Positions 3,089 to 13,211 of a stretch of 18,805 bases of DNA are shown one piece after another. The notes under the pieces are model-generated. The model searched no databases. It was not told where the DNA came from and saw only the letters and a list, made by a program, of their open reading frames with translations. Position 1 is the first letter of the stretch. The number at the start of each line of letters is the position of its first letter. This DNA is from a virus. The stretch lies in the UHGV virus genome UHGV-0261633; one strand, given 5' to 3'. The position numbers and the translations under genes are program-made.

Positions 3089-3646
3089 TTACTTTCTCAG
3101 TGGATGAATAAAGAATGCCAACATAACTCTTTCCCTTGAGAATGCTCTTTCTTCTGGGACAACACTTTTTAGCTTCCATCCAACATAAATTCTCCAGTAG
3201 AATTGTTTACCAAAGACTTTAATTGATGGGATAAAAGCGAATAATCCCCAAGCATTACTGTTCCACATTAGGAGATAACCTGTCTGATTATCTTCAGGGT
3301 CAGAACTTACGTTGATATTGCCTTTCCACTTAGTAACATCTTTTACATCTCTTCCTAACACATGGTAAGAGAAGTTATAAGCTTTGTTTCTCCAGAGCCA
3401 TCCAACTCTCTGCAAATAGACACCAAGCTTACCAATCTTTCTAATCTTAGCCCATCTTTTAACGTGACCTTCATCACCATCAATCGGGTTGTCATATGTC
3501 TCCATCCATCTGAATCCAAAAGGTAAGTGTCCTTTCTTCTCACTGTAAAATGGAACTACAAAAGGTGCTAAGATAACTGCTAAGATTGCTGCCAATGGTT
3601 CTAGCAAAGCTAAGAAAATCCATGAAGCATACTTCAAGTATCTCAT
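3089..3646 (-). CDS. hypothetical membrane protein (185 aa) embedded in the tRNA array
   Basis: ORF track; AGAGG RBS about 9 nt upstream; hydrophobic N-terminal segment IFLALLEPLAAILAVILAPFVVPF, Trp-rich remainder. Confidence 0.6.
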   Translation of the reverse strand: MRYLKYASWIFLALLEPLAAILAVILAPFVVPFYSEKKGHLPFGFRWMETYDNPIDGDEGHVKRWAKIRKIGKLGVYLQRVGWLWRNKAYNFSYHVLGRDVKDVTKWKGNINVSSDPEDNQTGYLLMWNSNAWGLFAFIPSIKVFGKQFYWRIYVGWKLKSVVPEERAFSRERVMLAFFIHPLRK

Positions 3647-3741: not shown

Positions 3742-3855
3742 TTACCTACAAGAACACCATACAGTTTTTCACAAGAGTTGTTTTTACGCCTGTTTTTGAA
3801 TGACGCTATAAACTTTTTTGCAATTGATTTATTACTCATAGTGTTCTCCTAAAAT

Positions 3856-3934: not shown

Positions 3935-4009
3935 TGGTACTCACTAAAGGACTTGAACCTTTTTCTTCATCTTGTAAGGGTGATGTTTTACCATATAAAC
4001 TAAGCGAGT
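3935..4009 (-). tRNA. tRNA-Val (anticodon UAC)
   Basis: Encoded CCA, T-arm aaagg-acttgaa-ccttt, anticodon loop CUUACAA. Confidence 0.75.
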
Positions 4010-4011
4010 AT

Positions 4012-4102
4012 GAAAGAGGTCTGAAGTTGTGCCGCTAACTCAACTCCGTGGGATTTGTTACGGTCTTCAGTTGACTCAAAGCGGTCTTTCACTTGACCTC
4101 TA
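4012..4102 (-). ncRNA. tRNA-sized structured element without a canonical T-loop (possible tRNA-like RNA or degenerate tRNA)
   Basis: Outer stem agaggt (4015-4020) / acctct (4096-4101), inner stem ctgaag (4021-4026) / cttcag (4065-4070), internal hairpin ccgt..acgg (4046-4063); no GTTCGAAUC motif in either orientation. Strand not determined from sequence. Confidence 0.3.
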
Positions 4103-4105
4103 AAT

Positions 4106-4181
4106 TGGTGCTCCCACAAGGATTCGAACCCTGATAAGTTACTTACAAGGCAACCGTAATAGCCAATTATACGATAGGAGC
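4106..4181 (-). tRNA. tRNA-Thr (anticodon UGU)
   Basis: Reverse complement GCUCCUA-UC-GUAU-AAUUGGCUA-UUAC-G-GUUGC-CUUGUAA-GUAAC-..-CAGGG-UUCGAAU-CCUUG-UGGGAGC-A-CCA. Confidence 0.8.
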
Positions 4182-4868: not shown

Positions 4869-4951
4869 TGGCATGGGACGGAGGAGTTGAACCCCTTTGA
4901 AACGGTTTTGGAGGCCGTTGCTCATGCCTTAGAGTCTTAACATCGTCCCAT
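4869..4951 (-). tRNA. tRNA-Trp (anticodon CCA)
   Basis: Encoded CCA, acceptor atgggac/gtcccat perfect, T-arm ggagg-agttgaa-cccct, anticodon loop CUCCAAA; D-region longer than canonical. Confidence 0.6.
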
Positions 4952-5093: not shown

Positions 5094-5175
5094 TGGTCGA
5101 GGCGGCAGGACTCGAACCCGCATACTCCACTTACTCGGTTAACGGCGGTTTAGAAGACCGCTGAGATACGCCCCG
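5094..5175 (-). tRNA. tRNA-Arg-like (anticodon UCU) with non-canonical body
   Basis: Encoded CCA, acceptor cgaggcg/cgccccg, T-arm gcagg-actcgaa-cccgc, perfect anticodon arm GCGGU-CUUCUAA-ACCGC; but only 7 nt between acceptor and anticodon stem (no room for a D-arm) and 23 nt between anticodon and T arms. Confidence 0.45.
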
Positions 5176-5577: not shown

Positions 5578-5655
5578 AGAATAAGTACCCTAGTTAGAGA
5601 AACTGTTGAGTGGGTGTTTCCAGCCGCGCAGGTGTTTCTCAGTTAAGGGTGAATT

Positions 5656-5731
5656 TGGTAGAAGTGGAGGGATTCGAACCCATCGCCTGTCAGATTAAAA
5701 GTCTGCCGCATCACCATTCTGCTACACTTCC
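5656..5731 (-). tRNA. tRNA-Lys (anticodon UUU)
   Basis: Encoded CCA, acceptor with terminal G-U, T-loop attcgaa, anticodon loop CUUUUAA. Confidence 0.7.
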
Positions 5732-5736
5732 ATTAA

Positions 5737-5876
5737 ATTATCTTTGTAGATAAGCTACCCAGACTTGCTTAAGGTCTGTAGCGATGTGCCTTTTGGGTTT
5801 AAATCTAGAATTTACCCTTCACCCTTTGTGGTCGCATACTCACAGGTAAGCTTAATAACTTATCTACAAAGATAAT
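5737..5876. repeat. 18-bp perfect inverted repeat flanking a 104-bp ORF-free segment
   Basis: attatctttgtagataag (5737-5754) is the exact reverse complement of cttatctacaaagataat (5859-5876). Confidence 0.85.
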
Positions 5877-5920
5877 TACCAGACCGTTGTTTATCATCTT
5901 AAGTGCTACCATTACACCAA

Positions 5921-5975
5921 CTCGACATCTGCCGAGTGAAGGAATCGAACCTTCGCCTTTTCTTTACCGGAGAAA
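5921..5975 (-). other. tRNA fragment-like element (canonical T-arm plus one hairpin, no matching acceptor 5' strand)
   Basis: T-arm gaagg-aatcgaa-ccttc (5938-5954) and hairpin tttct-ttaccgg-agaaa (5958-5974); no complementary acceptor strand found downstream. Confidence 0.3.
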
Positions 5976-5990
5976 TAGATTGTTTAAGTT

Positions 5991-6018
5991 TTGCTGTAAA
6001 CGGTCTTCTGTAAATTTG
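5991..6018. repeat. 28-bp exact direct repeat, copy 1 (ttgctgtaaacggtcttctgtaaatttg)
   Basis: Identical 28-mer at 6471-6498; degenerate copies at about 6078-6097 and 6638-6658. Confidence 0.85.
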
Positions 6019-6130
6019 TTGAGCCAGACCAAGTTTTAAATTTTCAAAATTAAATTGGCTTGAAATTTCATACATTCTTGCTGTATTTGGTCTTCTGCTC
6101 CTTTAAAGAATACTCGTAAGAACTCTTTAA

Positions 6131-6153
6131 GGGAGGGGCTAAATAGCCCTCTC
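6131..6153. other. GC-rich hairpin gggaggggct-aaat-agccctctc
   Basis: Shares the 15-mer ggggctaaatagccc with a hairpin at 18364-18378. Confidence 0.5.
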
Positions 6154-6413: not shown

Positions 6414-6470
6414 ATGTTTAGTATTACCAGACCGTATCTTTCAATTTTTCCGCTAAAAATTTAATAAGTA

Positions 6471-6498
6471 TTGCTGTAAACGGTCTTCTGTAAATTTG
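6471..6498. repeat. 28-bp exact direct repeat, copy 2, abutting the 3' end of a tRNA-Met gene
   Basis: Identical to 5991-6018. Confidence 0.85.
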
Positions 6499-6573: not shown

Positions 6574-6664
6574 ATTCTTAATGACCAGACCAAATCTCTT
6601 CTTTGTCCGATTTACCTTCAGATGAATAAGATTAAGTTTGCTGTAATTGGTCTTCTGTCAAAAC

Positions 6665-6742
6665 TGGCGTTCCAGAAGGGATTTGAACCCTCAAATATCC
6701 ACTTTGAAAGAGTGGTGACTTTACCATTTTGTCTACTGGAAC
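6665..6742 (-). tRNA. tRNA-Glu (anticodon UUC)
   Basis: Encoded CCA, acceptor gttccag/ctggaac perfect, T-arm aaggg-atttgaa-ccctc, anticodon stem ccact/agtgg with loop CUUUCAA. Confidence 0.8.
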
Positions 6743-6991: not shown

Positions 6992-8407
6992 TTACCAGAT
7001 ATAACGGTCAATCATTACTGCTTTGAGCATTACGCTGATTGGGTCAAACTTCTCACCACTAAGCAGAGCTTTTAAAGTGGCTGGAGAGAAACCAGATACC
7101 ATTGCTACACCGTTATCCTTAACAGATACTTCGCAAGTACCATTACGGTTTGCTAAGTACCAGAATACCAGTTGTGGCATCTCATATCCAGCTTTTTTGT
7201 ACTTACTCTGAATTGCTTCAAAGTTTGTACGACCGTTAGCTCCATCAACCTGATTGAACTCCATATCGGAGAAGATGATAAGCTTACTTGGCATATCTTT
7301 CTGAGTCAAGTTGTTTCTTTTACCTGTTTCAAGAATGCGGTCAAAAGCTGCTTGTAAGTTAGTTGAGCCATATTCAACGTGTCGCATCACCTGACGATGA
7401 CGGTTTCGTAAATCACCACTCAGTTCGATGAAGTGAGGGTTTGTCGAATAAACCATCAACTCATTCTTAAAGCAACCTGTATTGCGTTCTGCTACATACA
7501 AGGCAAGTGATACACCAATATCCAGAGCAGTAATGGAGCCAAAATTCACCCAAGACATTGAACTTGATACATCAGACATACACAAGATGTTTTCACCTTC
7601 TGCCATCCAGTTTGGTAGTGCTTTCCACTGCTCATTAGCAACATCTGCATTACCATACTTGACAGATTTAATCACATCGTATGGGTAAACAGCACCAGCG
7701 TTAATCTTAGTCTCACCTTTTGATAAGGACTCGATGTAAGCTTTGTAACGCTCTCCATCTTTACGGTTAAACAGTTTTTGGTAACGTGCAGCAGCAAGTG
7801 AAGGAATCTTACTGTAGTCAATCTTACCAAACTCATTAGCAGAGATTTTTTGCTCAACTGTATCAGATAGTGCAGACAACAGTGTGCGGTACTCTTTCTC
7901 ACTCAAGTTGGCAAACTTGCAGAAACGTTTTACAAACTGCTTATGACGTGGTTTGACTCGTGGTAACCACTTAGCCGCCAAACCTGCTGTTGCAGGGTCT
8001 AGTAATGCTGCTTCTAAATGTTTGAAGGCATCTGTCTCGAAACGAGTACCTACGAAGATTTTGAAGTCATCAAAACGACCAAGTTCTGCAATCTTATCCA
8101 TAATGCGAAGAACCTGTGTAGGCTCTAAAACTTTATCTTCAATTGCTTGAAGCAAAACAGTTCTGAAGGCTTTACGCTCACCCATACCTTCTCGTACATC
8201 TCGCATATGCAGTAAAATACGAACTGCAACATCAACATCCTCACGCAAAGCTTTGTAGAACAGGTCTGGTAAGATTTCTACATTGCTACGGCTTGAACCA
8301 GCAGCTTTGTAAAAGTCTACAAGAGCAGACATTGATGAAGTATGGTTTACAGCACCATTTTCAGTTCGACCTGCATGAAGGTGCGCATGTTTAAATAATT
8401 CGCTCAT
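6992..8407 (-). CDS. von Willebrand factor A (vWA/MIDAS) domain protein, 471 aa, with ~270-aa helical N-terminal domain
   Basis: ORF track; C-terminal half has a DxSxS MIDAS motif (ILCMSDVSSSMS) and a vWA-like hhhhSD motif (KLIIFSDMEFNQ); GAGAG RBS. Domain call is from motif recognition only. Confidence 0.8.
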   Translation of the reverse strand: MSELFKHAHLHAGRTENGAVNHTSSMSALVDFYKAAGSSRSNVEILPDLFYKALREDVDVAVRILLHMRDVREGMGERKAFRTVLLQAIEDKVLEPTQVLRIMDKIAELGRFDDFKIFVGTRFETDAFKHLEAALLDPATAGLAAKWLPRVKPRHKQFVKRFCKFANLSEKEYRTLLSALSDTVEQKISANEFGKIDYSKIPSLAAARYQKLFNRKDGERYKAYIESLSKGETKINAGAVYPYDVIKSVKYGNADVANEQWKALPNWMAEGENILCMSDVSSSMSWVNFGSITALDIGVSLALYVAERNTGCFKNELMVYSTNPHFIELSGDLRNRHRQVMRHVEYGSTNLQAAFDRILETGKRNNLTQKDMPSKLIIFSDMEFNQVDGANGRTNFEAIQSKYKKAGYEMPQLVFWYLANRNGTCEVSVKDNGVAMVSGFSPATLKALLSGEKFDPISVMLKAVMIDRYIW

Positions 8408-12918: not shown

Positions 12919-13211
12919 TGAGTAAAGTACAGGTTGTTTTCCCTATTTGTGACTTCTCACTAGAGCGTGAACTTGACCTGTACGAAGAAATTACTGACGA
13001 AATTATCTGGTCTGTTGTAGAAGAGGCTATCAAGAAGCTGTATGGTGGCCTCTTAAATCCATCAAGTAAAAAGCTCAACACTAAACAAGTAGCTGATACA
13101 TATACTTCATATGATGCCTACAACAAGCCTTTTGAAAATACCTGCTTTGACCTTATGGTAGGTAATAACAAAGTCAACTATTTCTTCGTCAGAGAGTTTA
13201 ACGATGAGTAA
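12918..13211 (+). CDS. hypothetical protein (97 aa)
   Basis: ORF track; start overlaps previous stop (translational coupling). Confidence 0.65.
   Translation: MSKVQVVFPICDFSLERELDLYEEITDEIIWSVVEEAIKKLYGGLLNPSSKKLNTKQVADTYTSYDAYNKPFENTCFDLMVGNNKVNYFFVREFNDE

Follow-up and report, generated by a model that had tools for sequence, protein, structure and literature searches.

A conserved, structured non-tRNA element in the tRNA array of Felix O1-like phages

This report concerns a stretch of 18,805 nucleotides (nt) from the virus genome UHGV-0261633, called here the window, and a structured RNA element lodged within its tRNA array. The source phage is a Felix O1-like myovirus (Ounavirinae), since the 1-kb region around the element matches 254 phage records at 80-99% identity, including Salmonella phage Felix O1, the E. 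coli phages wV8 and HY02, the phages SUSP1/2 and Citrobacter phage Moogle. ARAGORN finds 25 tRNA genes between positions 1728 and 6826, every one on the minus strand, and Rfam gives a 26th tRNA-like match at 5097-5175. In the direction of transcription, the element is preceded by tRNA-Thr(UGU), which has an encoded CCA (4106-4181, minus strand), and followed by tRNA-Val(UAC) (3935-4009, minus strand), both recognised by ARAGORN and Rfam. These two genes are separated by 96 nt (4010-4105). The structured unit itself covers 87 nt of the minus strand (4015-4101, AGAGGUC...GACCUCU; nt 1-87 are numbered from 4101 down to 4015). On its 5′ side, the AU-rich linker AUUU (4102-4105, minus strand) of 4 nt, which differs in length and sequence among relatives, joins it to the CCA end of tRNA-Thr. 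On its 3′ side, the 5-nt linker UUCAU (4010-4014, minus strand), delimited like the former by reading the sequence, leads to the 5′ end of tRNA-Val, where an RNase P cut is expected; no other stretch of the spacer varies as much. As directly adjoining tRNA pairs of the array are spaced by 1-8 nt, linkers of 4 and 5 nt mean that the element occupies a tRNA-sized slot. This agrees with an earlier reading made from the letters of the window (the sequence-only reading), which had pointed to 4012-4102, between tRNA-Val and tRNA-Thr, as such a slot.

At its minimum free energy (MFE), the minus strand of the element folds into a long irregular hairpin of -29.9 kcal/mol. Dinucleotide shuffles reach -18.7 +/- 3.4 kcal/mol (z = -3.3), with only 1 in 200 as good, and the plus strand displays a similar stability (z = -3.5). 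The folding of both strands, which the sequence-only reading had proposed as a check, is therefore beyond chance. Four helices, all lying on the minus strand, are present in the MFE fold. S1 closes the element by pairing AGAGGUC (nt 1-7, 4095-4101) with GACCUCU (nt 81-87, 4015-4021). S2 joins CCGC (nt 18-21, 4081-4084) to GCGG (nt 67-70, 4032-4035). Further inside, S3 pairs UCAACU (nt 28-33, 4069-4074) with AGUUGA (4040-4045), and S4 pairs CCGU (nt 39-42, 4060-4063) with ACGG (4046-4049) around the loop AACAAAUCCC. Three of these stems (GAGGUC/GACCUC, UCAACU/AGUUGA and CCGU/ACGG) had been named before and are indeed found in the sequence and in the MFE fold, but the fourth helix, CCGC/GCGG, had been missed. 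An alternative helix, ALT, can be drawn between GGAGUUG (nt 55-61, 4041-4047) and CAACUUC (nt 73-79, 4023-4029) of the same strand, and excludes S3 and S4. The element also contains a near-invariant core of 23 nt, GUCAACUGAAGACCGUAACAAAU (nt 27-49, 4053-4075, minus strand), identical in the Ounavirinae and Avunavirus copies aligned by blastn. A covariance model built from 20 variants recovers exactly 4015-4101, with 114 bits and a single copy per genome.

The element is not recognised as a tRNA. On neither strand of 4010-4105 does the tRNA model RF00005 match at E <= 10, as opposed to 55-60 bits for the flanking tRNAs, and ARAGORN finds no tRNA in that interval. The absence of a T-loop, already noted in the sequence-only reading, holds for both TTCRA and GTTCRANYC on both strands. 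Moreover, the closing helix is followed by the tail UUCAU and not by a 3′ NCCA. The Rfam scan that had been suggested yields no family inside 4010-4105 at E <= 10; run on the element and on the array as a whole, with gathering as well as permissive thresholds, it returns tRNAs and weak noise only.

Nor is it a small protein gene. The only sizeable frame, a GTG followed by 30 codons on the minus strand, runs into tRNA-Val, and a 1-nt indel, CGC(U)UUGAG, shifts it in most relatives, so that the element is non-coding. The plus-strand open reading frame (ORF) called '51A' in the wV8 record overlaps tRNA genes and is spurious. Other identities were considered and rejected. Self-cleaving ribozymes known to trim tRNA trailers (hepatitis delta virus (HDV)-like/theta, hatchet and hammerhead) have no Rfam match in the element at E <= 10, and, in our own reading, the nested double pseudoknot of the HDV type would lack a conserved P1 strand upstream of S1. 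Compared by eye, likenesses to the HDV-like/theta ribozyme, the lambda boxB or rrn boxA antiterminator, a ToxI-like antitoxin and a CRISPR-repeat mimic do not exceed 5-8 nt and are not conserved in relatives. A promoter repeat resembling the promoter-early stem-loops (PeSL) was also discarded: 4010-4105 contains no -35/-10 hexamers, and the element stands outside the repeat family D8 and is present in a single copy per genome.

A blastn search with the element retrieved 260 phage records. The great majority (254, at 90-100% identity) belong to Felixounavirus, Suspvirus and Mooglevirus; the six others, at 80-90%, are Avunavirus-like Vequintavirinae such as Av-05 and TH18. A close homologue (at least 80% identity) of a 471-residue protein encoded nearby occurs in about 251 records, and comparison with the roughly 254 records holding the element indicates that essentially every Felix O1-like genome of the collection has it. 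Across some 30 related loci, 14-18% of the columns of the element are variable, compared with 4-53% for the 25 tRNAs (median 17%), 31-49% for the other spacers and 19-36% for three ORFs. Its variability is thus as low as that of the tRNAs and below that of the other spacers. Between Felix O1 and Av-05, genome-wide blastn aligns only six segments: the DUF7338 gene (73% identity), tRNA-Gly (88.5%), the element (82.8%), two other tRNAs and part of nadV (66.6%). Most of the additional variants had been fetched with an exact 17-mer taken from the 23-nt core, and IMG/VR was rescanned using anchors outside the core; one contig of about 25 then carried a core change (G41A, locus L244). Consequently, the invariance of the core is not a retrieval artefact.

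Outside these phages the element was not found. With blastn, none of 5,426 complete E. coli genomes gave a match, and the 17-mer core had 54 matches in the genomes of 185,579 species, all of them due to chance and none in Enterobacteriaceae. Scans of IMG/VR with 17-, 15-, 18- and 19-mers and of one metagenome returned only Ounavirinae or Avunavirus copies and chance matches. The covariance model detected nothing in the tRNA cluster of Yersinia phage P778, the tRNA region of T4, the surroundings of the DUF7338 gene of RB43 or the rest of Av-05. The element is confined to phages, whose hosts are Escherichia, Salmonella and Citrobacter; a host origin or mimicry was rejected, no copy being found in E. 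coli genomes or in the species-level genome set. The RefSeq record of Felix O1 has no annotated feature at the corresponding positions, 27805-27899.

Natural variation shows which parts of the fold hold. The 20 distinct variants were aligned in register in what is a shallow alignment, with a mean column identity of 95%. S1 and S2 are real helices. In S1, 94% of the cells are paired. Pair 4-84 appears as G-C in 17 variants, as U-A in two (Avunavirus) and as G.U in one, and the helix is shortened in a divergent metagenomic copy (L114), each strand having lost 2 nt in a matched way. In S2, all cells are paired in 20 of 20 variants, pair 20-68 being G-C in 18, A-U in one where both sides are changed (L101) and G.U in one (L185). 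RNAalifold also hints at an extra pair, 16-71 (G-C in 17, A-U in two), which would favour nesting.

The inner part, on the other hand, would either adopt ALT or alternate between ALT and the combination of S3 and S4. In S3, four pairs are invariant, one U-A becomes U.G and the end pair is broken in two variants by a change of A62 to C or U. S4 is broken by G56A in wV8 and by G41A in L244, and one of its G-C pairs becomes G.U in Avunavirus. Taken together, S3 and S4 are nearly always pairable, with two wobble shifts and three disruptions as the sole changes; they are predictions of the energy model alone. In ALT, changes affect four of the seven pairs and yet every cell is paired in all 20 variants: pair 56-78 reads G.U in 14, G-C in five and A-U in one, and pair 57-77 is A-U in 17, G-C in two and G.U in one. 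By a rough count, the chance probability of such an all-compatible pattern is near 0.06. The covariation score is 0.061 for S1, S2, S3 and S4 versus 0.115 for S1, S2 and ALT. Natural variation fits ALT better than S3 and S4.

Energy calculations answer differently according to the genome. In Ounavirinae the nested hairpin is better than ALT by 4-8 kcal/mol, with the pseudoknotted S2 omitted from the ALT model, and in Av-05, TH18 and L114 the MFE fold is ALT. RNAalifold, which cannot model pseudoknots, returned the nested model with a negligible covariation term. The inner stems of the sequence-only reading are therefore the MFE optimum of the window, but their pairs are broken three times among variants and ALT fits these better, so that they may not be the native ones. 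Two other pairings were discarded: the helix AAGU/ACUU of the MFE fold is impossible in Avunavirus and broken in three Ounavirinae variants, and a pseudoknot GAGU/ACUU suits Av-05 and not the commonest Felix O1 variant.

ALT and S2 together make a pseudoknot. According to this model, a 7-base pair (bp) acceptor-like helix, S1, would be stacked on a 7-bp arm, ALT, giving a stack of 14 bp beside the 3′ tail, and the loop of the arm would form four Watson-Crick pairs with nt 18-21, in replacement of the D-loop/T-loop elbow. The element might switch between this pseudoknot and the simple hairpin. We consider it improbable that the tRNA-shaped pseudoknot serves as decoy, inhibitor or scaffold for a tRNA-recognising host factor of Escherichia, Salmonella and Citrobacter, which might be a tRNA-targeting defence nuclease or an enzyme of processing or repair. 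Quite improbable to us is also a tRNA-shaped decoy or inhibitor turned against a tRNA-targeting defence, or another factor, of Escherichia, Salmonella or Citrobacter. Copies of the element come exclusively from phages infecting these hosts, no bacterial genome containing one. It travels with tRNA genes, and counter-defence is a known role of phage tRNAs (PMC11464382). Folded as ALT, it would have a geometry recalling an acceptor/T arm with its elbow. Against this, the element has neither a CCA end nor an anticodon-loop consensus, and its likeness to tRNA depends on the putative pseudoknotted model. As for the description of the element as tRNA-like, one folding would recall the tRNA elbow; this putative fold is read from variant data.

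The strand on which the element acts can also be deduced from the alignment. Depending on the structure model, 8-21 cells are G.U pairs on the minus strand; with the plus strand, or with DNA, every one of them would turn into an A.C mismatch. Selection therefore bears on the RNA of tRNA sense. A consensus scan found no promoter-like or terminator-like site inside or beside the element, hence co-transcription with the tRNAs is the simplest inference; upstream, the same scan gave promoter-like sites at 6973-6945, 6882-6853 and 5408-5380. The element is a genuine, conserved and structured RNA gene, unannotated and uncatalogued so far. It is non-coding, minus-stranded, single-copy and restricted to phages, and two of its helices covary.

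What this gene might do can be discussed in the light of its neighbourhood in two phage groups. Felix O1-like phages show the arrangement Gly-(HNH)-Thr-element-Val-Leu-(small ORF)-Arg-DUF7338. In Avunavirus, tRNA-Gly(UCC) is directly followed by the element, then by a ribosome-binding site with a 76-codon ORF and by the DUF7338 gene. A module of roughly 1 kb is thus common to both groups, and the constant neighbour of the element is the upstream tRNA.

We propose, with about even confidence, that the element is a small RNA released from the tRNA precursor and acting through its invariant core. It would be transcribed from the minus strand inside a polycistronic tRNA precursor and excised by the maturation enzymes of the neighbouring tRNAs. 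RNase P, cutting at the 5′ end of tRNA-Val, would set its 3′ side, and RNase E, or again RNase P, would cut the AU-rich 4-nt linker past the CCA of tRNA-Thr to create its 5′ side. The product would measure about 87-96 nt, and the locking of its ends in a helix of 6-7 bp would make it stable. Finally, it would act in trans via the 23-nt core, by binding a protein or by pairing with another RNA. Co-transcription, excision, stability and trans action are all what we infer here from the data above.

Several points weigh against this proposal. In Avunavirus the element is followed by an ORF and not by a tRNA, therefore RNase P cannot set its 3′ end there; it may stay attached as an mRNA leader, which would better suit a role in cis. 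P778, a distant relative, has in the corresponding Thr(UGU)-Val(UAC) spacer (153 nt, 12958-13110 of its extracted locus, L089) an ORF that encodes a highly acidic peptide of 42 residues (MNIDDMGILEDVDFEAALKD...) and has a ribosome-binding site to itself; this spacer has no significant RNA fold (z = -0.8). As this slot holds a small ORF and no element, the latter is not essential to every such phage. The interior fold can be drawn in two ways, S3 with S4 or ALT, and the covariation amounts to few independent events in the shallow alignment described above. No RNA sequencing or Northern study of a Felix O1-like phage was found in the literature. Moreover, no partner was found: the Ro-like protein discussed below is uncoupled from the element in Av-05 and P778, and the DUF7338 protein also occurs in phages without it.

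The last candidate deserves a few words. DUF7338 is encoded at 3089-3646 on the minus strand, embedded in the tRNA array, as a protein of 185 amino acids with an N-terminal transmembrane helix, labelled 'holin' in occasional annotations. Its counterpart in Av-05 (5598-6140) is 80% identical, and those of the T4-like phages RB43 and KP27 are 57-61% identical. It was rejected as a partner: it is the only co-travelling protein gene, yet it is present in T4-like phages without the element.

Alternatively, the element could act in cis on the processing or stability of the tRNA/mRNA precursor and be devoid of function once released. In this case, a stable hairpin directly 3′ of a tRNA would force endonucleolytic cleavage of the AU-rich linker; it may also keep the neighbouring tRNAs insulated in their folding, offer a site to RNase III or RNase E, or protect the downstream 5′ end. 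We regard this explanation as possible but rather unlikely. It suits the fact that the constant neighbour in both groups is the upstream tRNA, a few nt away, with tRNA-Val downstream in Ounavirinae and, in Avunavirus, an ORF that has a ribosome-binding site of its own, as well as the shape of the element, a long irregular hairpin with closed ends. The presence of a second structured non-tRNA hairpin in another tRNA slot (5578-5655, z = -4.3) goes in the same direction. However, a purely structural block would not need a sequence of 23 nt identical in two subfamilies, mostly predicted to be unpaired or in short helices, every other tRNA junction of the array lacks such an element, and the Thr-Val junction of P778 works with an unstructured small ORF. 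Regulatory RNA and processing scaffold, both evoked in the sequence-only reading, are live options.

The second hairpin is of interest in itself. It lies on the minus strand between tRNA-Lys(UUU) and tRNA-Met, and it is tRNA-sized but not a tRNA, with an MFE of -21 kcal/mol. It combines an outer stem of 5 bp and an inner one of 7 bp around a symmetric UAACU/UAACU internal loop. A 79% identical copy is found in Av-05 (7318-7418), and few Ounavirinae loci cover this spacer.

A protein partner was also looked for at the head of the tRNA operon, about 2.9 kb upstream of the element, where an ORF for 471 amino acids (6992-8407, minus strand) matches DUF2828, DUF7788 and PHROG 850 ('RNA-binding protein'). 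This protein is homologous to a mycobacteriophage 'Ro-like RNA binding protein' (33% identity, E = 1e-77), which would make the element a Y-RNA-like partner whose stem binds the Ro ring while the rest tethers a host nuclease, e.g. PNPase. Y RNAs, which are related to tRNAs, have features in keeping with this: they are 80-130 nt long, a 5′/3′ stem closing a large internal loop, and in bacteria and in 22 phages their genes are less than 4 kb from that of Ro, on the same strand (PMC4201824). In addition, the Ro60 of a Thermus phage binds two adjacent Y-like RNAs (PMC12135203). A Listeria phage homologue of the 471-residue protein has a suspected Y RNA partner (PMC12282133); overall, 710 phage records have a homologue, among them phages of Vibrio, Campylobacter, Listeria, Enterococcus and Staphylococcus that encode tRNAs. 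We nevertheless hold the Y RNA explanation for very unlikely. Av-05 has the element and no homologue of the protein genome-wide (tblastn, none better than E = 1.6), and P778 has the protein (53% identity) and not the element. Neither 5′ strand, GAGGUCAAGUGAAAGACCGC in the window and GAUGUCAAUGAAAUCCGC in Av-05, shows the Ro-binding motif GNCGAAN0-1G (or GGUCCGA), the element contains no T-arm or D-arm module and no Rfam family at E <= 10, and the protein has no sequence match to solved Ro60 structures. Since Av-05 keeps the element without the protein, the element does not seem to depend on the Ro-like protein; a Y RNA role within Felix O1-like phages is possible but unlikely.

It could also be argued that the element is a non-functional relic, either a decayed tRNA, as suggested in the sequence-only reading, or a decayed copy of a stem-loop repeat bearing a promoter. 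Indeed, it occupies a tRNA slot, and the 9-mer GAAGACCGU and a layout of stem, bulge and stem are common to the element and to four promoter repeats. This appears highly improbable to us. The element has no similarity to the tRNA model and no promoter hexamers, it is conserved at the level of tRNAs in about 254 genomes and in a second subfamily, S1 and S2 display compensatory changes, and neighbouring dispensable spacers are gained or lost among relatives where the element is always present. Decay from a tRNA is contradicted by the same lack of similarity to the tRNA model and tRNA-level conservation, by the shared 23-nt core and by the compensatory changes. Universality, invariance, the shared core and compensatory changes thus argue that this is no pseudogene in a compact lytic phage genome. 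The element may still have derived from the promoter repeat.

The repeats themselves are sigma-70-like, of the form TTTACA/TTGACA-GAAGACCGTTTACAGCA-AAACTT, and occur four times in the window (5985-6018, 6072-6105, 6465-6498 and 6632-6665). The last two are located inside hairpins of the minus strand, 6414-6496 and 6574-6664, in the two spacers that were folded. The stems of these hairpins differ by compensatory changes (GACCGU/ACGGUC in one, GACCAA/UUGGUC in the other), and the hairpins resemble the promoter stem-loop cassettes of T4-type phages.

By position and nature, the nearest counterparts of the element would be two RNAs of T4, RNAC (species 1) and RNAD (species 2), seen on Northern blots and without known role (PMC3014915, PMC9697503). 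RNAD (119 nt) and RNAC (139 nt) lie 1 and 6 nt apart, directly after tRNA-Arg. As the element, they are non-coding, roughly tRNA-sized RNAs which are not tRNAs, encoded on the tRNA strand a few nt from tRNAs, in a phage tRNA cluster where homing endonuclease genes are also found. The differences are clear too: the element is not homologous to them, its covariance model matching nothing at E <= 10 in the tRNA region of T4, RNAC has a canonical T-arm (GGUUCGAAUCC) that is absent from the element, and the T4 RNAs stand at the end of the cluster, the element between two tRNAs.

Comparison with Y RNA and YrlA, those encoded by phages included, gives a similar mixture. They share with the element a size class, a closed 5′/3′ stem, large internal loops, a setting among tRNA-like genes and a location on the same strand at less than 4 kb from a gene which is labelled Ro-like elsewhere. 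Unlike the element, they have the GNCGAA(N)G motif and the T/D-arm module; in addition, the element and the Ro-like protein are uncoupled in Av-05 and P778.

Spacer RNAs from E. coli tRNA operons are short and largely unstructured and bind Hfq. Lalaouna et al. in 2015 reportedly described 3′ETS-leuZ and internal spacers of these operons as sponges of small RNAs. Such functional by-products of tRNA precursor processing resemble the biogenesis that we propose for the element, which differs from them in being a long closed hairpin. Another parallel is offered by the PeSL of T4-type phages, which Arbiol et al. are said to have described in 2010. PeSL, the promoter repeats of the window and the element are all hairpins made of a stem, an internal loop and a stem in intergenic DNA. 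The element departs from PeSL by its lack of -35/-10 hexamers, its single copy and a G.U pairing specific for the RNA strand.

In diagnosis and therapy directed at Salmonella and E. coli, Felix O1-like phages serve as workhorses. The element is a candidate new RNA family of about 260 members, with compensatory change in two helices, and would be a second, independent example of the class of RNAs of the T4 tRNA cluster, on record for decades without a known function. As phage tRNA arrays have been tied to the evasion of tRNA-targeting defences, it is also a place to seek RNA-based counter-defence or host takeover.

Other features of the array were noted. The 26th tRNA-like sequence (5097-5175, minus strand) reaches 31.7 bits in Rfam, barely over threshold, and is missed by ARAGORN; its acceptor stem, T arm and CCA are good, and its D/anticodon region is aberrant. 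'Pseudo-tRNAs' have been noted for Felix O1 (PMC3185647), and this sequence may be one of them. Weaker tRNA-like fragments are found at 4875-4949 and 5937-5987. The 114-nt spacer between tRNA-Arg and tRNA-Leu(CAA) (3742-3855, minus strand) contains a small ORF (MSNKSIAKKF...) preceded by AGGAGA; the segment is entirely missing in garuso, HY02 and other relatives. In Felix O1, an HNH homing-endonuclease gene (27313-27726; 883-1296 of its extracted locus, L001) is inserted between tRNA-Gly and tRNA-Thr, where the window has none, and two further HNH genes interrupt the Felix O1 array. Finally, a Felix O1-like tRNA-array sequence is present, at 94-97% identity, in two GenBank entries whose stated hosts are unrelated, GU169904 (Staphylococcus phage SA1) and MG065664 (Campylobacter phage A132), which points to chimeric or contaminated assemblies.

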